Source: an uncultured Desulfobacter sp. (GTDB lineage: Bacteria > Desulfobacterota > Desulfobacteria > Desulfobacterales > Desulfobacteraceae). From it: a stretch of DNA of 64,000 bases. The stretch covers positions 928,001 through 992,000 of the forward strand of contig OY762069.1 of the NCBI GenBank assembly GCA_963665095.1. Direction: 5' to 3'. Of the stretch, positions 329 through 28,508 are shown piece by piece. The notes under the pieces are model-generated. The model did no database searches, was not told the origin of the DNA, and was given only the letters and a program-made list of their open reading frames with translations. The position numbers were made by a program, and so were the translations under genes. Numbering within the stretch: position 1 is the first letter of the stretch; each line of letters starts with the position of its first letter.

Positions 329-453
329 CTTGAACAAGCCGTTGCAGCCGATCCGGGGTTCTAGCGGCTTTTTGAAAGTGCTCGGTTTTCGAAAATGTTT
401 GGCTTTTACAATCTGCTCGGCACAAGCCCCGGGCGGCTGAACTACACGTTATA
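329..453 (+). other. attC site (long, ~125 nt); R' split by a group II intron
   Basis: CTTGAAC...GCCGATCCGGGG/CCCCGGGCGGC hairpin...GTTATA|intron|C. Confidence 0.85.
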
Positions 454-2707
454 GTGCGACACGATGTTGCATGATTGTATGTATAGGAGGTAAATGTAAG
501 ACACTGAATATACTCGGTGTATCCCCACCGGTTCCCTAGGTGAGCGTGCTATCGTTGCGCTGATGACGGGGTGCGAAGCCTCACCGACAATGTACCGAAT
601 CGGGTTTGAATGGCGACAGGAGAACCCCTCCGGAAATCCCATCCGGTTAAGGGCTAGGGTCGGACAATATGGCAAGATTAATCGAAGAGCTTTAAGCGCC
701 GTCAGTGAGCGCCTAACCTACTGGGATTAACAGGTTATATGTATACTTCCCTGCGTTTGTATACATGAACAGGATGCAAGTCTTCTAACTGCTTGCACGG
801 GATCTTAAGTTTCATCGGCGTAGAGGCCTGCCTAAGTTGTCCATTAAGAGCAATCATGTGGAACGTGGAAACGTTGTCACTCCCCATGTGCAATACATGG
901 AAAGCTAACCGCAAGGCAAGCCTGTGGAGGGGCAGCAGTAAGAATTCGGAAAAAAGCAAACGCCGTTTTGTAATGAAACGGATAGAGCATGAAACATGGC
1001 TCACGTAAAACCCAAAACCTTCGATTTTGGAGACATGCGTGCAGACGTCCGATTGGTGTTGACTTGCGAGAGAATTTGGAGAACCGCTTAAGATGGGAAA
1101 GCAAATGACGGCTTCGGCTGGTGCACCTGTCGACTCTGCTAAGAAATGGGCATCCATTGTTTGGAACAAAGCCCGGGCTGAAGTTAGAAGGCTGCAAATG
1201 CGTATCGCAAAGGCTGTAAAGGAAGAAAGATGGGGCAAAGTCAAAGCCCTTCAGTACTTACTTACTCATTCGTTCTACGCCAAGGCCTTGGCTGTCAAAC
1301 GAGTGACCTCAAATAAAGGGAAAAAGACTCCAGGCGTAGACGGTGTTTTATGGAAAGGCGCCCGAGCCAAATGGCAGGCTGTTTTCAGCCTGCAAAGACG
1401 AGGTTATAGACCGCAACCGCTAAGGCGGATTTATATCCCCAAAAAAAACGGTAAGAAACGTCCTTTAAGCATTCCAACAATGCTTTGCAGAGCTATGCAG
1501 GCGCTGTTCAAGTTAGCCTTGGCCCCAGTAGCGGAGACCATAGGAGATCGTAATTCTTACGGCTTCCGTGAAGGCCGCAGTTGTGCAGATGCAATTGCAG
1601 CAGCGTTCAATGCACTCTCCAAGCCTAATTCGGCTACATGGATATTGGAAGCGGACATCAAAGGGTGTTATGACAACATCAGTCAGGAATGGATGTTGGA
1701 AAATATCCCCATGGACAAAGTCGTTCTTAAAAAGTGGTTGACGGCAGGGTATGTGGAAGACGGCAAGCTATACCCTTCGCGCAAAGGAACCCCACAGGGC
1801 GGGATTATCAGTCCCACCTTGTCGAATTTAACCCTCGACGGACTGGAAAAAGCCGTTCATGATGCAGTTCCCCGCCGATGCAGGGTTAATTTTGTTCGAT
1901 ATGCAGATGACTTTATCGTCACAGGCAAGTCCAAACGCCTGCTCGAAGAACAGGTCAAACCCGCAGTCGAAGCGTTTCTAACTGAACGTGGTCTATCATT
2001 ATCTGAAGAAAAGACCATGATCACGCATATAACAGACGGATTTACGTTCCTTGGCCAAACTTTTCGAAAAACCGGAAATGTACTGCACATCACCCCGGCA
2101 AAAAAGGGAGTTCTCGCCTTTAAAGAAAAGCTCAGTGAACTGATCCATAAACATGCCGGCGGTCCATTGGAACCATTGGTCAAAAAGTTAAACCAGACCC
2201 TCCGGGGTTGGGGAAACTATCACCGGCACGTAGTCTCATCGGAAACATTTTCTCTTATTGATACGTTTGTTTACGAACAGCTGTGGAGAATGATTAAAAA
2301 GCGTCACCGGAAGAAATCCTCAAAATGGTTGAAAAACCGTTACTGGACTGACGGAAAACACAAGTGGATATTCACTGTCAAGAGCCGAAATAAAAAAGGG
2401 CCTTGCAGATATCACGTCATTCACCTAATTTCACTAGGGATAAAACGATATATCAAAATTAAAGCAGATGCAAATCCATATGATCCCGAATACAGCTATT
2501 ATTTCTGGCGTAGACGGAATCAAAAGGAGTCACGGTTACTCCCTACGCTGTCAGCCAGGGAATACCGCCAAACGCAAGCTGCATGAGGTAAACAGCCGGG
2601 GCGTCCCACAAGGTCGTCCTTTATAAACGCTTGAGCCGTATGACGGGAAACTGTCACGTACGGTTCTTAGGGGGGAAAGGGGCAGAGATGCCCCTGACCT
2701 ACCCGAT
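454..2707 (+). mobile_element. Full-length group II intron (CL/IIB-like) inserted in the attC R' box
   Basis: 5' GTGCGACACG; domain V GAGCCGTATGACGGGAAACTGTCACGTACGGTTC; 3' end ACCCGAT. Removing it restores GTTATAC, the exact complement of this cassette's R'' GTATAAC (4244-4250). Confidence 0.92.
1093..2586 (+). CDS. ltrA: Group II intron reverse transcriptase/maturase with no HNH endonuclease domain
   Basis: RVT_N-like VRRLQMRIAKA, GKKTPGVDG, GTPQGGIISP, YADD and maturase region; ends after NPYDPEY with no Cys/His En motif. Confidence 0.95.
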   Translation: MGKQMTASAGAPVDSAKKWASIVWNKARAEVRRLQMRIAKAVKEERWGKVKALQYLLTHSFYAKALAVKRVTSNKGKKTPGVDGVLWKGARAKWQAVFSLQRRGYRPQPLRRIYIPKKNGKKRPLSIPTMLCRAMQALFKLALAPVAETIGDRNSYGFREGRSCADAIAAAFNALSKPNSATWILEADIKGCYDNISQEWMLENIPMDKVVLKKWLTAGYVEDGKLYPSRKGTPQGGIISPTLSNLTLDGLEKAVHDAVPRRCRVNFVRYADDFIVTGKSKRLLEEQVKPAVEAFLTERGLSLSEEKTMITHITDGFTFLGQTFRKTGNVLHITPAKKGVLAFKEKLSELIHKHAGGPLEPLVKKLNQTLRGWGNYHRHVVSSETFSLIDTFVYEQLWRMIKKRHRKKSSKWLKNRYWTDGKHKWIFTVKSRNKKGPCRYHVIHLISLGIKRYIKIKADANPYDPEYSYYFWRRRNQKESRLLPTLSAREYRQTQAA

Positions 2708-2741
2708 CAATAGATATGTTAAATAAAATTGGAGCAAACAA

Positions 2742-4214: not shown

Positions 4215-4243
4215 CGAACTATGAAAAGAAGAGAGCAATAAAT

Positions 4244-4250
4244 GTATAAC
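4244..4250 (+). other. attC R'' box of the Fic cassette, separated from an attC body by an IS91 remnant
   Basis: GTATAAC is complementary to GTTATAC at the cassette start. Confidence 0.7.
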
Positions 4251-5396: not shown

Positions 5397-5613
5397 GCAG
5401 TTCCCTGTCAGGGACTCGTATCGGCAATCCGCTCCGGTACCAGGTTTTTCGGCTCTTTTTCAAGCCTGACCGGATAAAATAGAAGGAAGAATCTTAATGC
5501 TCACTCAATTTTACCAGGCAAATTTTAAAATCTGTGCTGTTAAATCTAAGTTTGAAAAAAAGGATTCCCCTGCTTTTACCCAAGAAATCAACTGCGAGGC
5601 TTCGACCCGGTTA

Positions 5614-6538: not shown

Positions 6539-6545
6539 AATAATT

Positions 6546-7486: not shown

Positions 7487-8400
7487 CTATAACAAAACGC
7501 TGCTCGTGCCCAGATAAATCCGAATCGTTGGGATTCCACGGAATAGGAGGATGAAACTCGATATTGTTACCCAGTGGGTGAAAGTCCCACATGAGCAAAG
7601 CATAGCCGGCAGCTCATTAGTGAAATCCACAGGCAAAACTGGTAACGGAAGTCTGATGCTGGATGGAACAAGATTGCAGGCTCTGTACTGAGCCCCGAAA
7701 AATGTATAGTTGTGGTCCACTAGGATAAACCCTGCTTGCAGGGGGAAAGCCGACGCATTGTAGCGTGACGGAAGGCAGCAGACTTACAGATGCTATGGCA
7801 AGCCTGTAAGTCACCACCGGGGTCTTCGACCAGGGCATGTTCTCAAAGGGGTAGCTCAGGAACTGGGGAGAGCCGGTTGGTTCCTTGCAGAAACAGAACG
7901 GTATCAGGAGTTCCAGCCATGGGCAAAATCCCGGCATCTGTATGGAAACCCTATCCTGCAGATGAGTTCACCACTGGTGAAGACACAAACGTTAAAGCAG
8001 GGCAATACGCCACGAAAGCCTGGAAGCACTGGCTTGGCCGAAGGCACCGAAACGGTAAACTTAACTTCAAGAAGTTTAGCAGACTTCTTAATTGGTACCC
8101 ATTACCGCGGCCTCGAATTGTTCACAATATCTAAAAGGACCTGCAGGGCAGCAAAGTTATGCGCCGATCAGGGTGTCGCCTGATTGGTTGACGGCTCGGT
8201 AAAAAGAGCCTGAATCGAGGAACCGTATGAGGGAAATCTTCACGTACGGATCTGTGGGGAGGGCGTCGGGTAACCGATGCCTTTACCCGGAAGGCCGACC
8301 CGGGGTTCTATCGGCTTTTCGAAAGTCCTTGGTTTTCGAAAAACCTTGGCTTTTACAATCTGCTCGGCCAAGCCACGGGCGGCTGAACTACACGTTATGT
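7487..8400 (+). other. attC site (~126 nt when reconstituted) split by a class E-like intron
   Basis: R'' CTATAAC (complement of GTTATAG at 6601); body 8292-8400 nearly identical to attC 329-453; R' GTTATGT. Confidence 0.85.
7504..8291 (+). mobile_element. Class E-like group II intron with almost the whole ORF deleted
   Basis: (TC)GTGCCCAGATAAATCC 5' end; domain V GAGGAACCGTATGAGGGAAATCTTCACGTACGG; ends TACCCGGA; residual ORF tail AWKHWL...PLPRPRIVHNI. Confidence 0.85.
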
Positions 8401-9719: not shown

Positions 9720-9746
9720 TAAAAAATTATGATAACAATACGCTCG

Positions 9747-11512
9747 TCGTGCCCAGATAAATCCGAATCGTTGGGATTCAACCGGACAGGAGGATGAAAT
9801 TCGATAATGTTACCCAGTGGGTGTAAGTCCCACATGAACAAAGCTTAGCCGGCAGTTCATTAGTGAAATCCACAGGCAAAGCCGGAGACGGAGGTCTGAA
9901 GCTGGATGGAACAAGATTGCAGGCTCTGCACTGAGCCCCGAAAAATGTATAGTTGTGGTCCATAAGGATAAACCCTGAAAGTGCGGGGGGAAAGCCGACG
10001 CATTCCAGCGTGACGGAAGGCAGCAGACTTACAGGCGCTATGGCAAGCCTGGGAGTCACCATCGGGGTCTTAGACCAGGGCATGTTCTCAAAGGGGTAGC
10101 TCGGGAACTGGGGAGGTCCGAATGCCTCCTTTTGCAGAAACGGTAAGGTGGATACCGTCCGGAAGGTAAAACACCTGAGGCAGCAGGAATCTCTCACTCC
10201 TGATGCTTGAAAAAGAAAAGTGGGAGGAAAATAAGGTACCGGGGGAGGATAGTTAATAGCGAACGAGCCTGGGAAGGACATTCGGAAGTCTTAGCTGATC
10301 ATAATACTGATGTTCAGGGGGGAATAAAACCCGAACGGCAAGGCGGGGAAGTGGTGCCCGAAGCGACCCGCTGAAGGAAAGGAGAGGCAGGGTATAACGT
10401 TTTTCCGGCAGGAACTATGGGAGACTCCCAGAGGTCACAAACCATATCAACGGACAGCCGGGAAATTGCGTCGCAGACAGCTATGAAATCCAAGGGAAAC
10501 ACAAAAGAACGGATAGCCGAACCTCTACCGATACTGGTGCCGGAGTCGTCGCTTGTCCATATCAGGACAATGGCAAAACAGGACCTACAGATGACGTTTA
10601 CATCTCTGGTCCACAAAGTTGACCTGTTCCTGCTGAATAAATCGTTTCGACAGTTGTGTAAAAACAGTGCCACCGGAGTAGACAAGGTCACGGTGGACAA
10701 GGGACCCCCCAGGGTGGAGTGATTTCGCCGGTACTCAGTAATATATTCCTGCACTATGTGCTGGACGACTGGTTTGCAAAAGTGGTTCAACCCCGGTTGA
10801 AGGGTAAAAGCTTTCTGATCAGGTTTGCCGATGACTTCATCGTCGGACTGCAGCTGGAATCAGATGCCAAAAGATTGTTGGAAGTTTTGCCAAGGCGGTT
10901 CAACCGCTACACTCTTGAACTTCATCCGAAAAAGACACGCCTGATTGCATTCGGAAAACCGGCCCGGAAGGGAAAGCCACAGGGGACGTTCGATTTCCTC
11001 GGGTTCACGTATTACTGGGGCAAAAGCCTTAAAGGCTACTGGGTGATCAAGAAGAAAACCACCCGCAAAAGGCGCAATCGGTTCATGCGGATGCTGTGGA
11101 GCTGGTGCAAGAAGCACAGGCATGACCCTATACGCGGTCAGCAGGAAACCTTGTGCAGCAAGTTGATGGGATTTTATCAATATTTCGGAGTACGGAGCAA
11201 TTTTAAGGTGCTGGAGGAGGTGTACGAATATGCTGCCACAGCCTGGAAACATTGGCTTGGCCAAAGGCATAGGAACGGGATATTGAACTACAAAAAGTTC
11301 AGCAGACTTCTAACCGGACATCCCCTGCCCAGGCCCCGGATTGTTCACAATATCTGAAAGGCTGCAAGGGCAGCAAAGTTATGCGCCAATCGGGGTGTCG
11401 CCTGATTGGTCGATGGCCCGGTAAAAGGGCCGGAGTCGAGGAACCGTACGAGGGAAATCTTCACGTACGGGTCTGTGGGGAGGGCGTCGGGTAACCGATG
11501 CCTTTACCCGGA
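9747..11512 (+). mobile_element. Class E-like group II intron with an internally deleted RT ORF
   Basis: Same termini as 7504-8291; domain V GAGGAACCGTACGAGGGAAATCTTCACGTACGG. Confidence 0.87.
10417..11357 (+). pseudogene. ltrA: Group II intron RT/maturase with central RT subdomains deleted, out of frame
   Basis: KNSATGVDKVT is joined directly to the (GTPQGG)VISPVLSNIFLHYVLD...RFADDF...FDFLGF segment. Confidence 0.88.
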
Positions 11513-11656
11513 AGAGGGGCCAGGCTTACTGCGCGGCCTTTCTAAAGTCCCTGGTTCAGGAAGATTAAACTTTTTATCGGAAGTTTTGGGGTTTAAAAAG
11601 CCTGGCCCCTCAAGTCCTCGTTATGCACCTACAAATCGAAACGAAAGAACATCATT

Positions 11657-13684: not shown

Positions 13685-14080
13685 ATGAAACCAAATGAAT
13701 TATCACCATGTTTTTGCACAAATGATGTAGATAACTGTCGCCAATTTTATACCAAATATTTTGCGGCAAAAATTATTTTTGATTGTGGTTGGTACGTAAA
13801 TTTAAGCTTTGGAGAAGATGGCCCAACGATCCAGTTCATGCAACCGCAAGAAGATATGCCAACATATGGCGGGACAGGCATCACGCTCAATTTTAAAGTC
13901 GAAAATGTAGATGCTGAATATAATCGGTTAATTGATGCGGGCTTTCAAATAGCAATGCCTTTGGAAGACCATCCTTGGGGCGATAGAGGATTTTCTGTAA
14001 TTGATCCCATTGGTAATTCTGTTTATATCTATTCAGACAGAGAACCAACAGAAGAGTTTAAGCAATATTATAAGGGCTAA
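13685..14080 (+). CDS. VOC/glyoxalase family protein (cassette gene)
   Basis: PLEDHPWGDRGFSVIDPIGN; stop codon lies inside R''. Confidence 0.88.
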   Translation: MKPNELSPCFCTNDVDNCRQFYTKYFAAKIIFDCGWYVNLSFGEDGPTIQFMQPQEDMPTYGGTGITLNFKVENVDAEYNRLIDAGFQIAMPLEDHPWGDRGFSVIDPIGNSVYIYSDREPTEEFKQYYKG

Positions 14081-14206
14081 CAAAGCCGCTGAACCCGACC
14101 GGGCTTATCTGCACGGCGTTTTGAAGCTGGTTGGTTAATGAAATTTTGAACTTTTTACTGGAGCTGGTGTGGTTTTAACGCCCGGCCGGTTAGCTCCCCG
14201 TTGGGG
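14075..14206 (+). other. attC site (long, ~132 nt) followed by an intron
   Basis: GGCTAAC (complement of GTTAGCC)...CCGACCGGGC/GCCCGGCCGG...GTTGGGG. Confidence 0.85.
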
Positions 14207-15211
14207 GTGCGACACGAGGTCGCATTATTGGCTGTTTGGCGGGCCAGTCGGTCCTGACCAAACCCGGCATTCTCCTGCCGGTACCCTATGTGGCATGCGG
14301 TTACCGGTGCATCCGGCAACGGTGTGAAGCCCAACCGACAAAGTACCGAATTCCGCAGGTGCGGAAGGGGTGGAAGCCGTGAGGCGGATACCCTCCTGGA
14401 AGCCTCATTCCGGGTGAGGGCAAGGGTTTGAATGATATGGTCAAATTAATTGAATGTTCCGTAAGTACCGTCAGGGAGAACAAGCTAAAGAGGCTGGTAA
14501 CCTTGGACCAAAAGGTGAGCGGTCAGGTTGCAGGTTTCTTAGCTGCCTGCACGTAGATGTTGCGCCGCCGGTGCTTAAGGACAGGCCTAAGTCATCCATT
14601 AATTGGCAATAATGTGGAACGTGGAAAGTCGGCCATGTCCCTATGGATAAGATGATCCTCACCAAATGTCTGGCTGCAGGGTTTATGGAAAATGGTAAGC
14701 TCTTTCCAACAGGTCGGGGGACACCCCAGGGAGGCATTGCCTCCCCGATACTTGCCAACATGGTTCTGGACGGCATTGAAGAAACTGCTAAATCCGTTGC
14801 ACCTGTCAGAGACCGGCGTAACGGTAAGGACATCAGTTCTAAAATCAACGTTGTCCGGTACACTGATGACTTCATCGTTACCGGTGCCACCCGGGAACTT
14901 CTTGAAGATAAGGTCAAACCGGCAATAATCAGCTTTCTTTCGGAACGGGATCTTTCCCTGTGATGCCAATCCTTTTGATCCGGAACACCAACAATACTTC
15001 CGGACAAGACGTGTGAAACCTAAGATGATCCCAGTCACAGCTGCCGAGGAAATATGTGATGGAATAACTGTAAATTTCAGTATTGGCAAGGGAAAACAGT
15101 CGGGCGGCCCCGCAAGGCTTAGTCTTAGAAATGCTTGAGCCGTATGACGGGAAACTGTCATGTACGGTTCTGAGGGGGGAAAGGAACTGTAAAGTTCCTG
15201 ACCTACCCGAT
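14207..15211 (+). mobile_element. CL/IIB-like group II intron, internally deleted; RT fragment at 14643-14963
   Basis: GTGCGACACG...domain V GAGCCGTATGACGGGAAACTGTCATGTACGGTTC...ACCCGAT; fragment has GTPQGGIASP and YTDD. Confidence 0.88.
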
Positions 15212-15955: not shown

Positions 15956-16708
15956 GCACAATAGGGGCAGGACTCCCCATTACTGAGGAGCCCTCCCACA
16001 CCATCCGGCATACGGATCTCGTACCAAGGCGGTTCGGCTGGTATGAATAAAATCAGTTGTAGGTTATCCCACCGATTTTATCGGGTTTTGGGCAAAGTCT
16101 TGCTATGGAAATTTCGGCCACTGCCGCATTATTCCCATAAAATCCTTTTACTTACTCACCACAACCATTTACCCAAGCCATTCGGCCCGGGTACCGTTCA
16201 GGCCTTCATCGGGGTGAGGCCTCCGGGTGTACTTCTCCCATGCGGTCAGGACCAGTTACCCGGCCCTCAGCCAATCCGGCACATGGGAGATCTCCCGGGG
16301 TAAACACGTGTCTTTCAGTACGTGAATGCCGGATTTACGGACATACCCTGTAATGGATAGAGGACTTCACCTTGTTGTGCAGGCTCGTCCAGGTATGTGC
16401 GCCTTATATCCGATTCCTGTACGTCATCCCGTACCTTCGTGGTACCTTGCCTCAGCAAGGCGGCTTCCTCCCGAAGCACCGTCACCGGTACCCCGTTGCA
16501 CTACCACTACACCCTTCGCCTCCATCCGGCTGGGTCTAAGACTTGCCAAAGGCATTGAAATCGTTTACGTTTGACTCACTTTTAAGAACACGTGCCGTGC
16601 CCGGCACACACAAAACGCTTCAGGTCGAAAGACCTTGGTTTCTGAAAAGAATTTAATTCGGGGAAGTCCTTGGTTTTAGTCTCCGGGCGGCTGAGCTCCC
16701 CGTTCTCG
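15956..16708 (+). other. attC site (~104 nt when reconstituted); R'' split by a IIC intron and R' followed by a CL intron
   Basis: GCACA|intron|ACAAAACGCTTCAG...GGGCGGCTGAGCTCCCC GTTCTCG. Confidence 0.75.
15961..16609 (-). mobile_element. ORF-less group IIC-attC intron (649 nt)
   Basis: Bottom strand starts GTGTGCCGGGCACGG; domain V GAACCGCCTTGGTACGAGATCCGTATGCCGG (CGC triad); ends CCCTAT; target TTGT/T. Confidence 0.88.
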
Positions 16709-17773
16709 GTGCGACACGAGGTCGCATTATTGGCTGTTTGGCGGGCCAGTCGGTCCTGACCAAACCCGGCATTCTCCTGCCGGTACCATAGGTGGCATGC
16801 GGTTCCCGGTGCATCCGGCAACGGTGTGAAGCCCAAACGACAAAGTACCGAATTCCGCAGCTGCGGAAGGGGTGGAAGCCGTGAGGCGGATACCCTCCTG
16901 GAAGCCTCAATCCGGGTGAGGGCAAGGGTTTGGATGATATGGTCAAAGTAGTTGAATGTTCCGTAAGTACCGTCAGGGAGAACAAGCTAAAGAGGCTGGT
17001 AAGCTTGGACCAAAAGGTGAGCGGTCAGGTTGCAGGTTTCGGAACTGGCTGCACGGAGATGTTGCGCCGCCGGTGCTTAAGGGCAGACCTAAGTCATCCA
17101 TAAATTGGCAATAATGCGGAACGTGGAAACCCCGTATCTTCGCCGGGAGTATTCGGCAGGTGAAACCGTAAGGCACACTGATGGAGGTGCGGGCGTAAGA
17201 TCCAGGAAAAAGCGAATGCCGTCTTGTAATGAGATGGATACGGATTGAGGCGTATATCCCCAACATTACCCGGCCCGAAAGGGAACTGACGTCCTGCGGG
17301 TGTGACTACAGACACACCCGGGCAGGTGTTTCTTTGTGAGAGAGTTTGGAGAATCTTTGAGGATGGGAAAGCAAATGACGGCAATGGCTGGTGCGCCCAT
17401 CAGCAGCTTTACGCTGTTAAAAGACTGTAGATACGTATCGCAAAGGTTGTTAAAGTAGCACACGGGATATACGCCAGAGGTTCTTTCAAAAGGATGCATT
17501 TTCTTTTGACTCGGAAAAAGAACAGTACTTTCCGAGAGAATGCTCAAGGACATATGCTATGAATTAACTGTAAATTTCATTATTGTCAGGGCCGTCTTGA
17601 AAATGCAGCCAAATCCCCGGTTTGAAAATGTATGTTCTTAGCTGGTTTTTCTTCTCTTAAAAATCAAATTTAAAAATTTCGTCTTCTTCATTTTTTTCCT
17701 TTCTTTGCCCTCTGCTTTTTTCCGTACATACTGATCTTATTCATGTCTGATTTGAATCGGAGGCAATATGTAG

Positions 17774-18340
17774 ATGGGACTACTCAAGAAAAGAAGGTGC
17801 CGAAATTGTAGAAGATTATTCGCTCCTAATCCAAGAAATATAGACTCTCAAAAATACTGTTCCAGATCTGAGTGCAGAAAAGCCAGCAAAAGGTGCAGCC
17901 AGAAAAAATGGCTGAACAAGCCTGAAAATCGAAACTACTTTTGTGGGCCTGCCCATGTTGAACGTGTTCAGGAATGGAGAAAGAAGAATCCCGGATATTG
18001 GAAGAAGACCAAAAGCCCAGATACGTTACAAGACTCGATATGTCCCCAACAGGCTGAAAATAAACAGGATTCAACGCAATTCATGGACAATGCGTTACAA
18101 GATTTCTTACGGGCGCAACCTCCTGTCATTATAGGGTTAATCGCCAACTTTACAGGCAGTGCGTTACAAGATGACATCGCTTCCACGCTCCTTCGTATGA
18201 AAAAATACGGGCAAGACATTTTATGTTCACAACCCCAAAAAGAAGGAGAGCAAAATGATTGCAAAGGCCCCCATTTTACCATCCAGGGTTCGAAAAACAC
18301 CCCAAAGCTTCAGTTGGATCGATCATCGCCTGGTGCGTGA
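17774..18340 (+). CDS. Hypothetical Cys-rich protein (IS21 passenger)
   Basis: CRNC...YCSRSEC putative Zn site; overlaps the next ORF. Confidence 0.7.
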   Translation: MGLLKKRRCRNCRRLFAPNPRNIDSQKYCSRSECRKASKRCSQKKWLNKPENRNYFCGPAHVERVQEWRKKNPGYWKKTKSPDTLQDSICPQQAENKQDSTQFMDNALQDFLRAQPPVIIGLIANFTGSALQDDIASTLLRMKKYGQDILCSQPQKEGEQNDCKGPHFTIQGSKNTPKLQLDRSSPGA

Positions 18341-18641
18341 ACGGCACATTGACAGGTGTACACACTCCCAGTCCGCCCTATATCTGTTTCTGGTGTGTGT
18401 GGCCGACAGTCAAGGCATCAGCTACTATGGAGATAAGGCGATCATGGATCGGCTGTGCATGGATTCTGATGGCCTGAAGACAGCACGTTCCGGGTTAATA
18501 CAGAATGGGCTGATTGCCTGGCAGAGACCTATTTACCAGGTGCTTGCCCTTGACCCTGCTCCTGGTAAATCAAAACGGCACGGCTCCATGCTGCGTCTTT
18601 CAGATATTCTAAAAGCAGCAGCGGAGGGCAACCATGATTGA
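18255..18641 (+). CDS. Hypothetical winged-helix-like protein (IS21 passenger)
   Basis: FSWIDHRL...ALYLFLVCVAD..G.SYY; overlaps the istA start. Confidence 0.7.
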   Translation: MIAKAPILPSRVRKTPQSFSWIDHRLVRERHIDRCTHSQSALYLFLVCVADSQGISYYGDKAIMDRLCMDSDGLKTARSGLIQNGLIAWQRPIYQVLALDPAPGKSKRHGSMLRLSDILKAAAEGNHD

Positions 18642-19608
18642 TTACGAAACCTATGTTCAAATCAGAAATTACTTTACCCGAGACGGCCTGACATACAGCC
18701 AGATTGCCAATGCCCTTGATCTGGACCCCAGGACAGTTGCCAGGTGGGCCAACCTGAAAAGGTACCAGCCCAGACAGTCAGCCCCCAGAGAAAGCAAGCT
18801 TGATCCGTATAAGAACGCCATCCTGCATATGCTTGAAAAACATCCCTACAGTTCCCGCCAGATATTTCAACGAATCACCCAGGATGGTTTTGCCGGGGGC
18901 ATCACCATTGTTGAGGATTATGTCAGGAAGGTGCGGCCGCCCAAAACAAAGGCGTATTTGAAACTGAGTTTTGCTCCGGGTGAAGCTGCCCAGGTGGACT
19001 GGGGTTCTTATAGTACAGTAAGGGTGGGCAACACGACCCGGCGGTTGAGCTTTTTTGTGATGGTGATGTGCCACAGCCGCATGATGTACGTTGAGTTCAC
19101 GGTCTCCCAGACCATGGAGCATTTTTTAGGCTGCCACCAGAATGCATTTGAGTTTTTTGGAAAGGTGCCGGAAAAGGTCATGGTGGACAATCTCAAATCC
19201 GCTGTTCTAAAAAGACTGCTGGGGAAAGCCCCGGTCTTCAACCCCAGATACCTTGATTTTGCAGATTATTACGGATTTACAATTGTTCCCTGTAATGTGC
19301 GCAAGGGTAATGAAAAAGGCCGGGTTGAAAATGCTGTGGGCTATGTCAAAAAGAATCTGCTCAACGGTCTTGAAATCCCTGATTTTAAGATCATGGAGCC
19401 CACCTGCAAACACTGGCTTGATACTGTCGCCAATGTCAGAACCCACGGAGAGACCGGTCAAAAGCCCGCATGAGAATGATCACAAAAAATCATGGAAAAA
19501 TTAAAGATAATTTGCAAGATATGCCAGGGATGAGGCAGAAGCTCCCCCGTTTATCTCGCAAATAATCAATGGAACTTCTGCCCCTATTACCCTAACAGGG
19601 CAGGAGAT

Positions 19609-20184
19609 ATGCTATCAGAACTTATTAAAAACAAAAATCTTTTTTTCCATCTTTACGAAATCGATAAAAATACAGCAAAACAGTACAGACAGTTGCCTTG
19701 TCCGCATTGTGGAGGCCCCTTATATTTCAGCAATTACATGCGCAAGCCCCGGGGAGAGCCTGAGGGCGTGCCGGAGGAATTCTTTATTCAGTTCAGCCTA
19801 TGTTGTGGAACCGAAGGGTGTCGCAAAAGATTGATGCCGCCGTCCTGCCGTTTTCTGGGGAGAAAAGTCTACTGGTTTGCAGTTATTCTGTGTGTTTTAA
19901 CAGACTGGCAAAATACCAATGAAAAAATCACCGTTTATGATTTGTCCATACGAACTGGCATTAGCCGGAACACAATAAACCGCTGGCTTGCCTTTTTTCA
20001 GGATACATTTCCAGTGAGCCGAACCTGGCGAAGGCTTCGGGGGCAGATATCCGCTGGTGTCAGTAACAGCCGTCTGCCGTCAAGTTTCATCAATTATTGC
20101 CGGGCGGTGAAATCCAACGCCGAAAACGCACTTGTATCAAGCCTGATAATCTTATCAGGCGGGTCCAAAATCAGGGCCGGATAA
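19609..20184 (+). CDS. Putative Zn-finger/HTH protein (DUF6431-like)
   Basis: CPHCGG...FSLCC...CRKR..P...RFLGRKVY...ISRNTINRW. Confidence 0.7.
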   Translation: MLSELIKNKNLFFHLYEIDKNTAKQYRQLPCPHCGGPLYFSNYMRKPRGEPEGVPEEFFIQFSLCCGTEGCRKRLMPPSCRFLGRKVYWFAVILCVLTDWQNTNEKITVYDLSIRTGISRNTINRWLAFFQDTFPVSRTWRRLRGQISAGVSNSRLPSSFINYCRAVKSNAENALVSSLIILSGGSKIRAG

Positions 20185-20290
20185 TCTCGCGCAGAGGATG
20201 AACATAGACAAATATATGCAGGCTGTTTTACCACCTGATTTCAGACGTTGATCCGAAATTTTAACCTGAAATTAAAAAGGAGCCTGATTT

Positions 20291-21736
20291 ATGAGTGGTA
20301 AAACACAGCACCCGGCAGACCTGTGGGCATTATTTCGCTTTTCGGTTATCGGCGGTTTACTGGCACGCCCTCCGGCAAAGGGAGAGTTGCAAAATGAACT
20401 GACCCGGCTCGCAGGTCAAATCTATTCTCATCCTGTGACGAACAAACCGACCTGTTTTCATTTTTCCACAATTGAGGCCTGGTATTACAGGGCAAAAAAT
20501 TGCCAGGACCCAATTCTGGCTCTGGGCCGTAAAGTTCGTTCAGATATGGGCAAATCCACAGCATTGAATGCTGAATTGATCCGCCTTCTTGGTGTCCAGT
20601 ACAACACTTATCCGCAATGGAGCTATCAGCTTCATTGCGACAACCTGGCAGCTGAAATCGCTGAACAGGGCCTGTGTGAGAATCCGCCGTCCTATGCAAG
20701 TGTGAGAAGGCGTATGGTTGAACGGGGTTGGAGAAAAAAGGCTTCCAAGAACAAAAATCAAACATCCGGACAGAAATCAGCTTTTAAGCGATTAGAAACG
20801 TATGAAGTCCGTAGTTATGAAACCGAAAACATCCATGAATTATGGCATCTGGACTTTCACGAATGCAGCAGGCGCGTGGTGGACGAAAAAGGTCAGTGGC
20901 ATACGCCCAAGGCATTGTGCATTCTTGATGATCGCTCCCGTCTGTGTTGTCATATTCAATGGTATTTGAATGAAACGGCAGAGGTTTTGATCCACGGCTT
21001 GTCCCAGGCGTTTTACAAAAGAGGGCTTCCCAGAGCCTTGATGACAGATAATGGTTCTGCCATGATTGCTCATGAAACCGGCAACGGACTTAAACGATTG
21101 GGCGTCAGTCATGAGACCACGTTGCCATACTCGCCCTATCAAAATGGGAAGCAGGAAGCCTTTTGGGGTACACTTGAAGGCCGTTTGATCGCCATGCTGA
21201 GCCGGATGGATTCTTTGACCCTGGTATATTTAAATCAGGTCTCCCAGGCCTGGATCGAGATGGAATACAACAAGTCAACCCATGATGAAATTCATATGTC
21301 GCCATTGCAATGCGCCCTTGACGGCAAGGATGTGTCACGTCCTGCACCGGAACCTGAACAGCTTCAATTTTCGTTTACAGCCTGTGAATCCAGAAAACAG
21401 CGTCTGTCCGATGGTACCATCTCTTTGATGGGCATCCGGTTTGAAATCCCTTCACGGTTTAATCATATCCAGCGTCTTCATGTCTGTTTTTGCTCCTGGG
21501 ATAAATCGGTTGCCTGGCTGATAGATAAACGAACCGGAAATAAGCTTGCCGCAATTTATCCCCAGGACAAGACAAAGAATGCTTCAGCAATCCGTCGTAT
21601 CAAATCCACTCCGGATGAAATTAACCCTGGCCATGAAACCCTGTCCGGATCAGAACCGGCCCTGCTTAAAAAGCTCTTGTCCGATTATGCAGCAACCGGA
21701 ATGCCTTGTGCCTACTTGCCAATGGAGGAAAAGTGA
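20291..21736 (+). CDS. DDE integrase-type (rve, Mu/TnsB-like) transposase
   Basis: ALFRFSVIG, WHLDFH, LDDRSR, RGLP.ALMTDNGSAM, PYSPYQNGKQE. Confidence 0.9.
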   Translation: MSGKTQHPADLWALFRFSVIGGLLARPPAKGELQNELTRLAGQIYSHPVTNKPTCFHFSTIEAWYYRAKNCQDPILALGRKVRSDMGKSTALNAELIRLLGVQYNTYPQWSYQLHCDNLAAEIAEQGLCENPPSYASVRRRMVERGWRKKASKNKNQTSGQKSAFKRLETYEVRSYETENIHELWHLDFHECSRRVVDEKGQWHTPKALCILDDRSRLCCHIQWYLNETAEVLIHGLSQAFYKRGLPRALMTDNGSAMIAHETGNGLKRLGVSHETTLPYSPYQNGKQEAFWGTLEGRLIAMLSRMDSLTLVYLNQVSQAWIEMEYNKSTHDEIHMSPLQCALDGKDVSRPAPEPEQLQFSFTACESRKQRLSDGTISLMGIRFEIPSRFNHIQRLHVCFCSWDKSVAWLIDKRTGNKLAAIYPQDKTKNASAIRRIKSTPDEINPGHETLSGSEPALLKKLLSDYAATGMPCAYLPMEEK

Positions 21737-22560
21737 TGAACAGCAAACGATTATTGGCTTATTATGGATTGAAGTACAATCCTTTTTTACCAAATATTCC
21801 TGTGGACTCATTATGGCATCCACCCCGGATGGAGGCATTTATTACACGCCTTGAAAATATGACCATGAACGGTGGATTTGCATTAATCGCCGGTGAACCC
21901 GGTCTTGGCAAATCCAAGACACTACAGGCGATTGCCCATCAGCTTGGCAAGCTTGATGAAGTCGTTGTCGGCGTTATGGAGCGCCCCCAAAGCAGCGTGG
22001 CCGATTTCTATCGGGAAATGGGGACACTGTTTGGTGTCAATTTGAGTCCGGCCAACCGTTACGGAGGGTTCAAAGATCTGCGGCAACGATGGAAAAATCA
22101 TATTAAAACAACCCTGTTCAGACCCGTCCTGCTCATTGATGAGGCTCAGGAAATGCTTACCGGATGCCTGAATGAGCTTCGGTTGCTCAACAGTATGGAT
22201 TTTGACTCCCAGAATTTATTGACCACCATTATCTGTGGTGATACCCGGCTGCCGGAACGGTTCAGAACCAGTGCATTGGTAGCCCTGGGGAGTCGACTCC
22301 GGTTCCGGTTAAAATTGGATCCTTATACCCGGGAAGAATTGTTGGATTATATAGCGCATTGCCTAAATCAGGCCGGAGCTCCTCAACTCATGACAAAACC
22401 TTTAATCACCGCTTTGGTAGAGCACTGTACAGGAAACTTACGGGTCCTCAATAATATGTCGGCAGAACTGCTTGAAGTGGGCGTTCAAAGAGAGCTGCCG
22501 CAACTGGATGAGAAACTTTTCATAGAGCTTTTTTCACTGAAACCGTCGCCAACCAGATAA
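21736..22560 (+). CDS. ExeA-like AAA ATPase (MuB/TnsC-like partner)
   Basis: YGLKYNPF; Walker A GEPGLGKS; Walker B LLIDEAQ. Confidence 0.88.
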   Translation: MNSKRLLAYYGLKYNPFLPNIPVDSLWHPPRMEAFITRLENMTMNGGFALIAGEPGLGKSKTLQAIAHQLGKLDEVVVGVMERPQSSVADFYREMGTLFGVNLSPANRYGGFKDLRQRWKNHIKTTLFRPVLLIDEAQEMLTGCLNELRLLNSMDFDSQNLLTTIICGDTRLPERFRTSALVALGSRLRFRLKLDPYTREELLDYIAHCLNQAGAPQLMTKPLITALVEHCTGNLRVLNNMSAELLEVGVQRELPQLDEKLFIELFSLKPSPTR

Positions 22561-22571
22561 GAGGTATAAAA

Positions 22572-22814
22572 ATGACAATCAATGAAACACAACTTGAAAA
22601 AACAATGGCTGAAATTGTCGACGAGCTGGGCAATCTGGTCATGGAGTTGATCCTTGTCAGTTTAAAAAAAATAAACTCGGAAAATCATCTTTTGACAGAA
22701 TTGCTGGAGATCAAACAAGAGGAACAAAGAGAAAATGAATTTTATGGTTTTGGTGAAACGGAGCCGGGACATCCTGGGGAGGAAACCCGGCAAGGGATAG
22801 CCAAAAGCAGGTAG
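22572..22814 (+). CDS. Small hypothetical protein inside the transposon
   Basis: GAGG RBS; 80 aa; 3' end overlaps the conserved structured element. Confidence 0.45.
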   Translation: MTINETQLEKTMAEIVDELGNLVMELILVSLKKINSENHLLTELLEIKQEEQRENEFYGFGETEPGHPGEETRQGIAKSR

Positions 22815-22933
22815 CATTGAATAATGCGCCGGGGGAAGCGGGGTTGACCTGCTTCCCCTTTCTGTATTATTCAAGCTTTCCTGCTCATGCCTTAAAAAAC
22901 CCAATAAAATCAGTCGGAGCGCAGCGACATCTG
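22752..22933. ncRNA. Candidate structured RNA/DNA element, copy 1
   Basis: Closely similar to 37533-37707, with compensatory changes in the hairpins. Confidence 0.5.
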
Positions 22934-23645
22934 CTAATCATTGAAAATACAGTTATGCCTTTCCCTGATTTATCCTGATTGTCGCTCCATTGATTATCGT
23001 GCTTCCTCTCAGCAGAGATGTATGCCCTGGAATTGCCCCACCTATACCCTCTGCCGTCAGAACCCTATGATATCGGTGTGGTAAAGCAGGTACGGGCTTC
23101 AAGACAGTACAGGGTAGTCATCGATACAAATGCTTACACAGTACCCGCCCAGCTGGCAGGGGTGGCTTTGACTGCCAAGCTTTACCCTGATCGGATCTGC
23201 TTTTACCATGAAGACAAGTTGGTTGCCCGCCATGTCAGATCCTATGGCCGCAAAAACGACCTTGAAGATCCTGATCACTCTAAAATCCTTTTGAGCCAGC
23301 GCAAAAAGGCCAGAGACCAGGCAATTTATATGCGTTTTTTAAGCCTCTCTGACAAGGCCCGGGAGTATTACAGGCAATTGCAGAACAGGCGGCTTAACGC
23401 CTCCCATCATGTACGGCAAATCGTGGCCTTGAGTGAAATCTACTCCCGGGAACAAGTTGCCATGGCCATTGAAGATGCCTTTAAGTTCTCTGCATTCTCA
23501 TGTGAATACATCGCCAACCTCCTTGAGCAGCGGGTTCGGTCTCCCCAGGAGCCCGGAGCCCTGCATGTTACACATAAAGCAGATTTACTGAACCTGACAA
23601 TCCAGGAGCCTGATCTTAATATTTATACCGCCATAGGAGATAAAA

Positions 23646-24380
23646 ATGCCTGATCTTGAGAAATGCCTGTCCCACTTAAAACTACCTTATATCAGGGAAA
23701 ACTATGAGTCAGTGGCTACCCTGGCTGCCCAGAAGCAATGGAGCCACGTTCAATATCTATCAGAGCTTGCCAGGCATGAATCACTACTGCGCCATGATAA
23801 AACCATCCAGCGCCGTATCCGTATGGCCAAGTTCCCGGTAATCAAAACCCTGGACCAGTTCAACTGGTCATGGCCCAGAAAAATCAATCAGGCTCAGATC
23901 CAGAATCTGTTCAGACTCAAGTTCATTGAAGAAAAGGGTAACATTATCGTGATCGGCCCGGTCGGTGTTGGGAAAACACATATTGCGACTGCTTTAGGTT
24001 ACCAGGCCTGCCTGAAAAACCATACGGTTCTGTTCTCTTCTGCCATTGATATCGTCAACAATCTGGTGGCAGCCCAGAAGGCGGGTCAGTTAAAGCAGGA
24101 ACTGAGAAAATACCTCAAGCCAACTTTGTTGATCATGGATGAACTGGGCTACCTGCCCATTGACAAGATTGGGGCAGACCTGTTGTTCCAAATTATCAGT
24201 CAGCGCTATGAGCAAGGAGCCATCATAATAACCACAAACCGGGTGTTCAAAGATTGGCCGGAGATCTTCAACAATGACATGACATTAACATCAGCTTTGC
24301 TGGACAGGCTTCTTCACCACACCGAGCCTGTGGTCATTGAGGGTAAGAGTTTTAGAATGAAAGATGTGACGGAAGAATAA
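23646..24380 (+). CDS. istB: IS21 helper ATPase IstB
   Basis: GPVGVGKT, LIMDELGY, ALLDRLLHH, IEGKSFR. Confidence 0.95.
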   Translation: MPDLEKCLSHLKLPYIRENYESVATLAAQKQWSHVQYLSELARHESLLRHDKTIQRRIRMAKFPVIKTLDQFNWSWPRKINQAQIQNLFRLKFIEEKGNIIVIGPVGVGKTHIATALGYQACLKNHTVLFSSAIDIVNNLVAAQKAGQLKQELRKYLKPTLLIMDELGYLPIDKIGADLLFQIISQRYEQGAIIITTNRVFKDWPEIFNNDMTLTSALLDRLLHHTEPVVIEGKSFRMKDVTEE

Positions 24381-24620
24381 CAAAGCCGAGGCCGGTCTAC
24401 ATGCATCTGGAGGCCGGCCCTTTAATCGCCTACATTTTTAAACCGGGAGATTTATGACATGTTCACGCCCCGCCTGACAATTATTGCTGAAACAACCGGA
24501 CGGCCCCGCAAGGCTTAGTCTTAGAAATGCTTGAGCCGTATGACGGGAAACTGTCACGTACGGTTCTGAGGGGGCCTGGGGTAGATAACTACCCCCGGCT
24601 ACCCGATCCTAAAAACACCA

Positions 24621-25228: not shown

Positions 25229-25462
25229 TATTGGCACAATAGGGATAGGACTCCCCATTACTGAGGAGCCCTCCTACACCACCCGGCATACGGATCTCGT
25301 ACCAAGGCGGTTCGGCTGGTATGAATTAAATCAGTTGTAGGTTATCCCACCGATTTTATCGGGTTTTGGGCAAAGTCTTGCTATAGAAATTTCGGCCACT
25401 GCCGCATTATTCGTAAGCGTTTAAAGGACCCCATCTACAAATCATTAAAATGACATGAGAAG

Positions 25463-25825
25463 ATGAGCCAACTTTTAATGGAGGCCCATCATATGTCAGA
25501 AACAGAGAAGAAAAACCAAAAACTAACCCAGTTCTGGAAGTACCACATTAAACAATGGTCTGAATCGGGTATGTCCCAAAATGCATACTGCAGGCAAAAT
25601 GATTTAAGACCCAATCAATTTACATACTGGAAAATGAAATTCAAAAGCCAGGCACTTGTTCCAGAATTCGTCCAGGTCCCTTCAACGCAGATCAGCCAGG
25701 CGCTAAGCCTTTCTGAACGAAAAGGCTTAGCGTTGAATACAGATAACGGATTTCAGATCGAAATACCGGATGGCTTTTCCCAAACAACCCTGGCCCAGGT
25801 GCTTCAAGTATTGAGGCGGTGCTGA
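25463..25825 (+). CDS. tnpA: IS66 accessory protein TnpA
   Basis: W..HI..W..SG.SQ..YC HTH; first ORF of IS66. Confidence 0.85.
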   Translation: MSQLLMEAHHMSETEKKNQKLTQFWKYHIKQWSESGMSQNAYCRQNDLRPNQFTYWKMKFKSQALVPEFVQVPSTQISQALSLSERKGLALNTDNGFQIEIPDGFSQTTLAQVLQVLRRC

Positions 25826-26178
25826 TGTTTTCTTCCACCCAGAATTTAAAAATTCATATCGCACTTGGAAACACTGATATGCGCAAGGCCATTGATGGGC
25901 TATCCATACTTGTGAGCGAAAAATTAAATTTGGATCCATTTTCGGGACACATGTTTGTATTCTGTAACCGGAAACGGAATATATTGAAAATCCTGTATTG
26001 GGATCGCAATGGATTCTGTCTTTGGCACAAGCGCTTGGAAAAGGATTATTTCCAATGGCCCAAGTCAAAAGAACAGATTTTGACCATCGGAGCAAAAGAG
26101 CTTTCCTGGCTGATGGACGGACTTTCTATTCGTCAGGAAAAAGCACATAAATCATTAAAATATTCGGCTGTTTTTTGA
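25819..26178 (+). CDS. tnpB: IS66 accessory protein TnpB
   Basis: TDMRKAIDGL...FVFCNR...KILYWDRNGFCLWHKRLE. Confidence 0.95.
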   Translation: MLMFSSTQNLKIHIALGNTDMRKAIDGLSILVSEKLNLDPFSGHMFVFCNRKRNILKILYWDRNGFCLWHKRLEKDYFQWPKSKEQILTIGAKELSWLMDGLSIRQEKAHKSLKYSAVF

Positions 26179-26190
26179 TCATAAAAACTG

Positions 26191-27816
26191 GTGAAAACCG
26201 CGTGGTTATGGTATATACAACGCATGAATAAAGAGGCTTTTGCAGACATAAATGACGTTGAGAAATTAAAAGAAATGATGGCTTGTTTTGTCAATGATTT
26301 TTCAGATAGAGAGCACAATTATAAAGCCGAAATCAAAATTCTCAACGAACAGATTAAAAGCCTTCGGGACCAACTTTTTGGTAAAAAGACAGAAAAAATC
26401 CATAAGGATGACGGTCAACTATCCCTTTTCGATACTTTTGAGCCGGAAACTCCCATATTGGACGAACCCGAAGATATCAGCGTGCCTGCCCATAATCGAA
26501 AGAAGCCAGGGTGCAGGCCTTTGCCTGAAAACCTTCCACGGGTTGAAGTGATCCACGATCTGACCGAGGAAGAAAAAATATGTGCCTGTGGCTGCATGAA
26601 ATCCCGTTGCGGCAAAGAAGAATCTGAACAGCTTGAAATTATTCCGGCACAAGTGAGAGTAATCAGAAACATTCGTTATAAATACGCTTGCAAAAACTGC
26701 GAAGGTGTTGACGATGATGGGCCAACAGTGTCCATTGCCAGAATGCCGGAACAAATGATCCCCAAGAGCATCGCAACCCCAGGGCTTTTGGCCCATATCC
26801 TGACAGCCAAATTTGCAGATGCTTTACCCTTCTACCGGCAGGAAAAACAGTTTAACCGAATTGGAGTAGACATCCACAGGTCCAATATGTGCAATTGGGC
26901 TATGAAAGTGGCCCAGGCCTGTGAGATCCTGCTGGAATATATGAGGGATGAAATCCTTAAAGGCCCAGTGATAAATATTGACGAAACAACAGTCCAGGTT
27001 CTTAAAGAACCCAAACGGTCAAAATGCTATATGTGGGTGTTCAAAGGAGGGGCACCGGATAATCCCATTATTCTGTTCCAGTATCACGCAACTCGATCCG
27101 GGGATGTTGCCCGGAATTTTTTGAACGATTATCAAGGTATTGTCCAGACGGATGGCTATGCTGGCTATGACTTTCTTGATCATATCGTGGGAATTATTCA
27201 TATTGCGTGTTGGGTACACGCACGTCGAAAGTTCATGGCTGTGTCCAAAGCTGCCGGAAATAAAAATGGCAACCCGACGGGAATCGCAGGCAAAGCCCTG
27301 AAGTACATCAGCAAGTTATATAAAATAGAGAAAGAGGCCAAAGAACTTGGTTTGTCTGCTGAGGGACTTTACCGGAAAAGACAGGAACTATCCTTGCCTA
27401 TCCTTGATGAATTTAAAAAATGGTTGGATGCTCAAGTTGAAAAGGTACCGCCCAAAAGTCTTCTTGGTAAAGCCATTAACTACACCCTTAATCAATGGCA
27501 TAGATTGGTTCTGTATACGGCAAGTGGTCTGGTAATGCCGGATAATAATGTAGTCGAAAATGCCATAAGACCCTTTGTGGTGGGCAGAAAAAATTGGTTG
27601 TTTTCATGTACACCTGCGGGCGCCGATGCCAGTGCCTGCATTTACAGCCTGATCGAAACAGCCAAGGCCAATGGACTTGAACCTTACTGGTACCTCAAAT
27701 TTCTCTTTGAAAATTTACCGGAAGCCATGACAGAGGACGAATTCAAAGCCTTGATGCCACAAAACGTAGATAAACATTTGCTGGAATCCAACTATACAAC
27801 ACCCCGTCAGGCTTAA
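26191..27816 (+). CDS. tnpC: IS66 transposase TnpC
   Basis: LPFYRQ, IDETT, QTDGYAGY, CWVHARRKF, DNNVVENAIRP. Confidence 0.95.
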   Translation: MKTAWLWYIQRMNKEAFADINDVEKLKEMMACFVNDFSDREHNYKAEIKILNEQIKSLRDQLFGKKTEKIHKDDGQLSLFDTFEPETPILDEPEDISVPAHNRKKPGCRPLPENLPRVEVIHDLTEEEKICACGCMKSRCGKEESEQLEIIPAQVRVIRNIRYKYACKNCEGVDDDGPTVSIARMPEQMIPKSIATPGLLAHILTAKFADALPFYRQEKQFNRIGVDIHRSNMCNWAMKVAQACEILLEYMRDEILKGPVINIDETTVQVLKEPKRSKCYMWVFKGGAPDNPIILFQYHATRSGDVARNFLNDYQGIVQTDGYAGYDFLDHIVGIIHIACWVHARRKFMAVSKAAGNKNGNPTGIAGKALKYISKLYKIEKEAKELGLSAEGLYRKRQELSLPILDEFKKWLDAQVEKVPPKSLLGKAINYTLNQWHRLVLYTASGLVMPDNNVVENAIRPFVVGRKNWLFSCTPAGADASACIYSLIETAKANGLEPYWYLKFLFENLPEAMTEDEFKALMPQNVDKHLLESNYTTPRQA

Positions 27817-28383
27817 AAAGGTGCGGTTGATACACCGCTTACCATTATTCCCATAAAATCCTTCTACTTACTCACCACAACCATTTACCCAAGCCATTCG
27901 GCCCGGGTACCGTTCAGGCCTTCATCGGGGTGAGGCCTCCGGGTGTACTTCTCCCATGCCAGGGAGGCCCGGCTCGTTTCCTCCGACTACTATGCCCTCT
28001 GCTGACTTCTCCCATGCGGTCAGGACCAGTTACCCGGCCCTCAGCCAATCCGGCACATGGGAGATCTCCCGGGGTAAACACGTGTCTTTCAGTACGTGAA
28101 TGCCGGATTTACGGACATACCCTGTAATGGATAGAGGACTTCACCTTGTTGTGCAGGCTCGTCCCGGTATGTGCGCCTTATATCCGATTCCTGTACGTCA
28201 CCCCGTACCTTCGTGGTACCTTGCCTCAGCAAGGCGGCTTCCTCCCGAAGCACCGTCACCGATACCCCGTTGCACTACCACTACGCCCTTCGCCTCCATC
28301 CGGCTGGGCCTAAGACTTGTCAAATGCTTTAAAATTCATTACATTTGACTCACTTTTAAGCTCACGTGCCGTGCCCGGCACAC

Positions 28384-28508
28384 ACAAATCGCTGGAGAGG
28401 GACCAGGCTTACTGCGCGGCCTTTCGGGAGGGCCTGGTTCAGGAAATTTTATCTTTTTATCGGGAGTTTTTGGGTTTAAAAGCCTGGCCCCTCAGCTCCC
28501 CGTTAACT
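28384..28508 (+). other. attC body (R'' begins at 25234; ~130 nt when reconstituted)
   Basis: ACAAATCGCTGGAGAGGGACCAGGC...GCCTGGCCCCTCAGCTCCCC GTTAACT. Confidence 0.85.

Follow-up and report, generated by a model that had tools for sequence, protein, structure and literature searches.

Group II introns of several lineages at attC sites of an integron cassette array in an uncultured Desulfobacter genome

Insertion into the attC sites of integrons has been treated as a trait of class C (IIC) group II introns, with other lineages homing to ordinary sites (PMC4424553, in the part of that paper available to us). The accessible portion of Sonbol and Siam 2021 (PMC7923331) describes UHB.I2, a CL1/IIB1 intron lying directly after an attC, and the class E fragments H.ha.F1 and H.ha.F2, and refers as well to one IIC case on the top strand, in Enterobacter cloacae. 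Our literature search returned non-IIC introns at attC only as these single CL1 and class E cases, as far as the available text of PMC7923331 goes. Here, we analyse a 64,000-nucleotide stretch (the window) from the genome of an uncultured Desulfobacter sp. (G000, positions 928001-992000), in which a cassette array holds seven group II introns, named A, B1, B2, E1, E2, C1 and C2. The work follows up a prediction made from the sequence alone, according to which three intron lineages partition the attC site, each using its own fixed position, and non-IIC introns had previously been noted there only sporadically, as our search bears out.

Targeting of attC by non-IIC lineages, following a rule that can be read from RNA pairing, appears real and is well supported by the homologues that we collected, which places several intron lineages at attC beyond the textbook IIC introns. 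The best overall explanation, which we consider probable, is that we are dealing with a sedentary integron and that three or more unrelated lineages of retro-mobile group II introns have colonised its attC sites.

Intron lineages at the attC sites

An intact integron integrase gene (intI; 471.6 bits, above the NCBIfam cut-off) lies at 910169-911113 of G000 on the minus strand, about 17 kb upstream of the window, and from about 912 kb on a plus-strand series of attC sites runs into the window, with cassettes encoding Fic, glyoxalase, DUF1706 and toxin-antitoxin genes. Sites were scored by arm profiles combined with L-box and stem pairing, trained on 28 uninterrupted sites (15 of 43 candidates had been removed, 10 being CL 5' exons and five judged false), in place of pairing-only heuristics, which overlooked evident sites. 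Only two of 600 random G000 positions reach a score of 20. After in-silico excision of the introns, the six attC that hold all seven of them score between 33.7 and 51.2 (Table 1), each with R'', L'', L' and R' boxes and paired arms by this custom scorer. Uninterrupted attC number 34 in G000, and in three cases an intron follows directly on R'.

Twelve Rfam matches to group II intron domains, with domains V and VI (DV/DVI) among them, cover all seven places, and in A a reverse transcriptase (RT)/maturase (Pfam RVT_1/GIIM) occupies domain IV. The offsets named in the original prediction were recovered: A lies three bases past the R' GTT (GTT+3), B1 and B2 at GTT+4, and E1 and E2 ten bases past the R'' AAC (AAC+10), while C1 and C2 sit at A|AC, reading TTGT/T on the bottom strand, opposite to the cassettes. 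The predicted start positions agree as well, 15961 and 25239 being the 3' ends of the two IIC introns, and one attC (15956-16708) indeed carries two lineages, C1 and B2. The RT is intact only in A; E1, E2 and B1 are internally deleted, insertion sequences (IS) interrupt B2 and C2, and C1 lacks an open reading frame (ORF). Numerous copies, almost identical to one another, occupy different sites, which implies that the introns were mobile in the past.

In a quick tree of 55 rows, the chloroplast-like (CL) RTs (SH-aLRT branch support 100), the E-like RTs with a sister group (98) and the class C RT of G000 form separate branches, and none of the A, B and E introns belongs to class C. The class labels lean in part on a resemblance, judged by eye, with proteins from the PMC7923331 supplement, the tree being built without curated class references. 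A and B share one branch with plasmid CL1/IIB1 relatives (SH-aLRT 100). The best match of the RT of A in the PDB is 6me0 (E 3e-163, other RT structures being at 1e-40 or weaker), which we take to be a CL-type maturase, CL1 rather than CL2. The E-like RTs are sister (98) to a lineage inserting at GTT+1, which resembles the published class E intron H.ha.F2 by eye only. As in class E introns, which lack an endonuclease domain, a full-length E-like relative (L051) has RVT_1 only, and both exon-binding sites (EBS1 and EBS2) are present. The hallmarks of IIC-attC introns, namely a class C RT, bottom-strand insertion and no EBS2, are absent from the A, B and E introns. Viral contigs yielded only two loci, distant and non-attC. 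For C1 and C2, plasmid RTs at 53-56% are among the top 15 matches of a related RT in G000, with no named IIC-attC reference in the tree; 10 of 11 IIC 5' ends in G000 score as attC, and the eleventh site is additionally split by an E copy.

CL homologues were drawn from 41 loci on genome contigs and from a set of 401 genomes of the class; L-numbers denote homologue loci elsewhere. A and B belong to one endonuclease-less clade (27 rows, SH-aLRT 99), Pfam finding no endonuclease domain in the RT of A. Of the 35 distinct 5' junctions outside G000, 30 score as attC; GTT or GTC stands at +2 in 14, at +3 in 19 and at +4 in one, 34 in all, and L228 is retargeted. These junctions were assigned to the clade by tree or RNA likeness, leaving out five RNA-similar, non-attC introns with unplaced RTs (L197, L198, L208, L209 and L255). 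Copies of A and B were found at GTT+3 of other attC in contigs from other samples, and extra B copies in G000 keep the same sub-site. Relatives beyond the clade occupy transposase-like genes or other places, and all seven plasmid CL1 relatives are non-attC. The breadth outside Desulfobacterota rests on four loci (L015, L016, L023 and L042). A contig from an RNA run covers A at 97%, although contigs cannot show splicing or expression.

The E-like set comprises 110 loci and 20 regions. These introns start with UCGYG or UUGYG and end with ACCYGGA; a two-nucleotide 5' extension was rejected, because the register of EBS1 on the intron-binding site (IBS1) makes UCGYG/UUGYG the boundary itself. Among 61 distinct junctions with both flanks known, 28 score as attC, at AAC+10 in 22 and AAC+11 in six, and fall within L'', in most cases a single base beyond the extrahelical one. 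An 18-row clade with the relatives of the window's introns (support 98) uses attC in 10 of the 13 rows whose 5' flank is known; of the remaining three, one has AAC and lacks the 3' flank, and two have AAC and no attC. Deeper branches also hold attC users, intermixed with non-attC subclades, which means that attC use either is ancient and was lost in some subclades, or arose more than once. Extra E copies in G000 sit at the sub-site of E1 and E2, an empty attC corresponding to the E2 site is present in contigs of other samples, and NZ_CP087953.1 carries an E-like intron at 1728-3996 at AAC+10 of an attC scoring 50.6. One subclade (L100, L115, L116 and L141) targets repeated AACATCGAACGTC-type sequences, not attC. 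Near 2928842 of G000, an attC carries an IIC 5' end in R'' and a five-base remnant at AAC+10; the remnant is identical to the terminal bases, first and last, of an E-like intron and is probably a collapsed insertion.

Three more lineages insert in the top strand of attC outside the window. The GTT+1 lineage, of a second class-E type, has an EBS1 reading UAACGN with a pairing of 5.18/6, and of its 19 homologues for which a 5' end is available, 12 score as attC, in each case at +1. A CL clade that carries an endonuclease uses GT|T or GTT| (L072, L203, L205, L206, L233, L236 and L238), and another CL clade inserts at AAC+15 (G000 117803, L024 and L242). Holding the three CL groups together is rejected by the approximately unbiased (AU) test (31 versus 19 rows, p 4e-6), with the groups named after tree inspection and six rows omitted, which gives support for, and not proof of, separate origins. 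The predicted specialisation of at least two further lineages stands for CL and is incomplete for the E-like introns, with 33 of their 61 junctions outside attC, and the lineages had been under-counted.

Because the lineages use different boxes, one attC can take two of them. Such sites occur at 15956-16708 of the window, at 707 kb and 1.625 Mb of G000, and at L051, L181, L206 and L231. Further arrangements are seen at L092, where an attC with an E-like intron holds another one in its L' region; at L131, where copies stand in tandem; and at L203:2909-2940, where a CL intron located at AAC+15 contains, 31 bases in, an intron of the GTT+1 type.

Recognition of the sites and rival explanations

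Judged from covariation in the intron alignments, the sub-site is the EBS register: EBS1 and EBS2 complement attC boxes and covary with them, and this sets the position of an intron in the site. For CL introns, EBS1 is the column that pairs best with the last six exon bases (4.31/6 over 37 rows, an excess of 1.54 over permuted exons, in a set chosen by a loose pattern that includes four non-attC rows), and EBS2 covaries with exon positions -8 to -12. The register fixes the offset, NNUAAC going with GTT+3 and NUAACG with GTT+2. The stem-loop of EBS1 is visible in the fold of A; folds of whole intron domains are no more stable than shuffles. The +4 offset of B1 and B2 can be read as +3 plus an added G, which raises their EBS scores from 2.5 to 4.5 and from 3.5 to 4.5; the match to the R'' of the downstream cassette becomes slightly better too, though this is not decisive. 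The extra G before the intron 5' end recurs at 14206 and 16708 of the window (CL) and at G000 3902693 and 3906485 (IIC), and may be a non-templated addition or a bulged EBS1 pairing.

In the E-like introns, EBS1-IBS1 pairing averages 5.06/6 over 54 introns (runner-up column 3.06), with excesses over permuted exons of 2.14 and 2.9. Where AAC lies upstream, EBS2 is nearly fixed, its core UGU standing opposite the ACA of R'', with compensatory changes of EBS2 and R'' in L062 and L063; where AAC is missing, EBS2 varies along with the exon. The position predicted as fixed for each lineage holds only within one or two bases (+2, +3 or +4 for CL, +10 or +11 for E-like), tracking the register, and is not strictly fixed.

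The IIC introns would take the known route via the bottom strand, TTGT/T and the hairpin. The two non-IIC lineages probably use the usual chemistry of retrohoming and insert in sense orientation, with exon-binding loops that have become complementary to conserved attC boxes: in CL1 introns EBS1 would read the R' core and EBS2 the preceding spacer, and in E-like introns EBS2 would read the ACA of R'' and EBS1 the 5' half of L'', which puts the cut at AAC+10, roughly a base beyond the extrahelical one. EBS pairing alone cannot explain the preference for attC, since 118 to 137,901 positions of G000 pair with the EBS1 and EBS2 of a copy as well as its own site does (three for the AAC+15 copy). As the pairings are short and tolerate mismatches, a further determinant must steer the introns to attC, and it is likely read from the hairpin or by the protein. 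Most probably it is the folded or single-stranded attC that these endonuclease-less introns meet at the replication fork, or RT contacts with L' or stem bases, and selection favouring harmless intergenic sites may assist. Introns that lack an endonuclease use nascent strands of the replication fork as primers (PMC3898094), and in most sedentary integrons the bottom strand of attC lies on the template of leading-strand synthesis (PMC5371416), as stated in the available parts of these papers; with that layout the top strand would be exposed.

Homing to a linear sequence, with EBS and RT contacts to a few distal bases making up a site of 20-25 bases that happens to match attC, would make the hairpin as irrelevant as for any IIA/IIB intron, and we give it a considerable chance, if somewhat below even. 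A 25-base profile of homologue flanks nearly isolates attC in G000, selecting 1-15 sites for five of six CL copies, four for E1 and 320 for E2, so that linear sequence may suffice without a hairpin; the profile is partly circular, being the attC consensus. The E-like copies at non-hairpin sites, which retain AAC or ACC at -13 and a good IBS1, point the same way, as does an E copy inside an attC whose R'' was already broken by an IIC intron (G000 1.625 Mb). Against this, the occupied sites hold no invariant distal base: between 34 occupied and 50 free attC, no base outside CGTT is more conserved (lowest p 0.007 of 25 tests). Further, one B copy sits at R'+3 of a hairpin whose GTT reads ATT, with a profile score of -12.5, and the EBS2 of A pairs with its own site at just 2.5/5.

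Loose insertion followed by survival at attC alone, these sites being intergenic, dispensable and multi-copy, with cassette traffic spreading the survivors, would agree with the decay of six of the seven introns and with the many non-attC sites that hold E-like introns. We consider it improbable, as intergenic selection cannot yield single-base offsets or attC-complementary EBS loops across genomes and the flanking cassettes differ for each copy. A true partition of niches, in which competition for attC drove the lineages to different sub-sites, also has a small probability in our judgement. The sub-sites are indeed distinct and non-overlapping, as the original prediction had it, and doubly occupied sites exist, yet four lineages lie within four bases of the R' core (GT|T, GTT+0/+1, +2 and +3), where they would destroy each other's IBS1, and the majority of the G000 attC remain unoccupied, which means that sites are not in short supply. 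The sub-sites may as well reflect convergence on the few conserved boxes of attC as competition.

Several points weigh against EBS-guided targeting of attC aided by a hairpin or protein contacts. The flanks of homologues place attC users at the sub-site of their lineage (30 of 35 CL and 28 of 61 E-like junctions), but the E-like majority lies outside attC, at non-hairpin sites that speak against a hairpin requirement, and in three multi-copy genomes only one of seven, four of seven and two of five scorable E-like copies are in attC, the seven copies of the first being identical. EBS1 pairing is no weaker at attC than at other sites (4.91 versus 4.86, p 0.34), and the expectation that weaker EBS1 pairing would be tolerated at attC failed; EBS2 pairing is slightly weaker there (2.71 versus 3.15, p 0.028, with related rows non-independent). 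The attC scorer is custom-made and differs from the IntegronFinder model, some metagenome loci may be chimeric assemblies, and the replication orientation is unsure, since GC skew fits the leading-template layout and the position of dnaA does not. The skew minimum of G000 is at 4.678 Mb (origin near 4.68 Mb), its maximum at 1.071 Mb, and dnaA at 1.337 Mb, a mismatch for which rearrangement or an assembly issue may be named.

In a bolder and less likely reading, attC would serve group II introns at large as a landing pad: five or more non-IIC lineages of two RT classes would have separately evolved recognition by EBS pairing plus the folded top strand and can stack, acting as hitchhikers (R') or lockers (L'', R'') and shaping cassette mobility. 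Judged by position, an insertion at R' spares G|TT and the two L boxes, and such an intron would move along with the downstream cassette, to which it belongs, while insertions in L'' and R'' would break the hairpin or its core and hence the site.

Coordinates and neighbouring elements

Table 1. Features of the window and of two G000 introns; GTT and AAC positions are those of R' and R'', and scores are after in-silico intron removal.
Feature	Position	Strand	Details
attC site 1	329..453	+	AAC 333-335, GTT 448-450; 5' exon of A; score 40.0
Intron A	454..2707	+	intact CL1 (IIB1-type), R' GTT+3; Rfam D1D4-7 513-654, DV-DVI 2631-2707
EBS2 of A (GUGAG)	705..709	+	alignment column covarying best with exon -8..-12
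EBS1 of A (UCUAAC)	784..789	+	complements R' core GTTANN; stem loop in fold; covariation
RT/maturase of A	1093..2586	+	497 aa; Pfam RVT_N, RVT_1, GIIM only
attC site 2	7487..8400	+	split by E1 inside L''; AAC 7491-7493, GTT 8394-8396; score 37.4
Intron E1	7504..8291	+	class-E-like; ORF mostly deleted; AAC+10; ends 5'-UCGUG...ACCCGGA-3'; Rfam D1D4-6, DV-DVI; boundaries from EBS1-IBS1 covariation
EBS2 core of E1 (UGU)	7703..7705	+	complements ACA of R''
EBS1 of E1 (GUAGCG)	7760..7765	+	complements 5' half of L'' (CGCTGC)
attC site 3	9730..11626	+	split by E2; AAC 9734-9736, GTT 11620-11622; score 33.7
Intron E2	9747..11512	+	class-E-like; AAC+10; internal deletion splits RT; Rfam
EBS1 of E2 (CCAGCG)	10005-10010	+	
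RT of E2, C-terminal part	10719-11357	+	212 aa
attC site 4	14075..14206	+	AAC 14079-14081, GTT 14200-14202; 5' exon of B1; score 51.2
Intron B1	14207..15211	+	CL1, internally deleted, GTT+4; Rfam
EBS2 of B1 (GGGAG)	14474-14478	+	
EBS1 of B1 (CUUAGC)	14538-14543	+	
RT fragment of B1	14643-14963	+	51% identical to A
attC site 5	15956..16708	+	C1 in R'', B2 after R'; GTT 16702-16704; score 34.1, R'' restored
Intron C1	15961..16609	-	IIC, ORF-less, bottom strand at TTGT/T; Rfam D1D4-3
Intron B2	16709..24607	+	CL1, ORF-less, GTT+4; Rfam D1D4-7 16765-16923, DV-DVI 24531-24607
EBS1 of B2 (CGGAAC)	17040-17045	+	
attC site 6	25234..28508	+	split in R'' by C2; GTT 28502-28504; score 35.0, R'' restored
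Intron C2	25239..28383	-	IIC, ORF-less, TTGT/T; Rfam D1D4-3, D1D4-1
AAC+15 intron	G000 115675-117803	-	intact CL; short attC; perfect EBS1 and EBS2 pairing
GTT+1 intron	G000 6284691-6285525	+	ORF-less, class-E-type; 3' fragment at 5207006-5207074

About 6.9 kb of insertion-sequence genes interrupts B2, with IS21-like IstA/IstB and an rve transposase with ATPase at 17600-24480, and C2 is interrupted by an IS66 element (Pfam IS66) with nested IS genes at 25415-27840. Also in the window, an IS91-family element (Y2 transposase) at 4249-5698 begins a few bases past a TAAC that resembles R''; its end is an attC-like hairpin of 78 bases, found several times over in G000. Elsewhere in this genome, IIC copies cluster at 3.898-3.917 Mb; their domain V/VI region harbours other group II introns, and one of the IIC copies has entered another at its 5' end. 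An intact group II intron at 337334-339249 (+) has an RT of yet another group and flanks unlike attC.

Comparison with described introns

Two RT classes other than class C, with at least five lineages, appear to aim at attC on the opposite strand, and their aim can be read from the EBS loops. Software that finds attC will miss or split the sites in such arrays, and the one intact element (454-2707) opens tests of hairpin use by IIB-type introns, of cassette-borne intron spread and of array freezing by insertion.

In the available parts of PMC3001079, PMC7923331 and PMC4424553, S.ma.I2-type IIC-attC introns match C1 and C2 in strand, orientation and the TTGT/T target. The A, B1, B2, E1 and E2 introns differ from these in being non-class-C, lying on the top strand in cassette sense at other sub-sites, and having an EBS2, which IIC introns lack. 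They are closer to UHB.I2 and to H.ha.F1/F2, which are likewise non-IIC, endonuclease-less, adjoining attC and in cassette orientation; by eye only, the UHB.I2 protein shares motifs of the RT of A, and H.ha.F2 those of the GTT+1 lineage. As far as the available text of PMC7923331 goes, those cases are isolated and their exons are called poorly conserved, and it gives no clade-wide rule, match of EBS to attC, L'' intron or multi-lineage site.

Avi.groEL-type IIB1 introns (PMC12584367) offer a parallel, being also a CL1/IIB1 clade specialised on a conserved signal through EBS-IBS pairing. Their targets, as given in the accessible part of that paper, are start and stop codons, and they have a large 5'-subterminal insertion unseen in A or B. 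The E-like introns share with class E (IIE) introns, as described in the available portions of PMC3753933 and PMC3552965, an endonuclease-less RT, EBS1 and EBS2, and a small IIB-like ribozyme. While attC is unmentioned in the accessible text of PMC3753933, the E-like introns described here have their EBS2 nearly fixed on the R'' core of this site.

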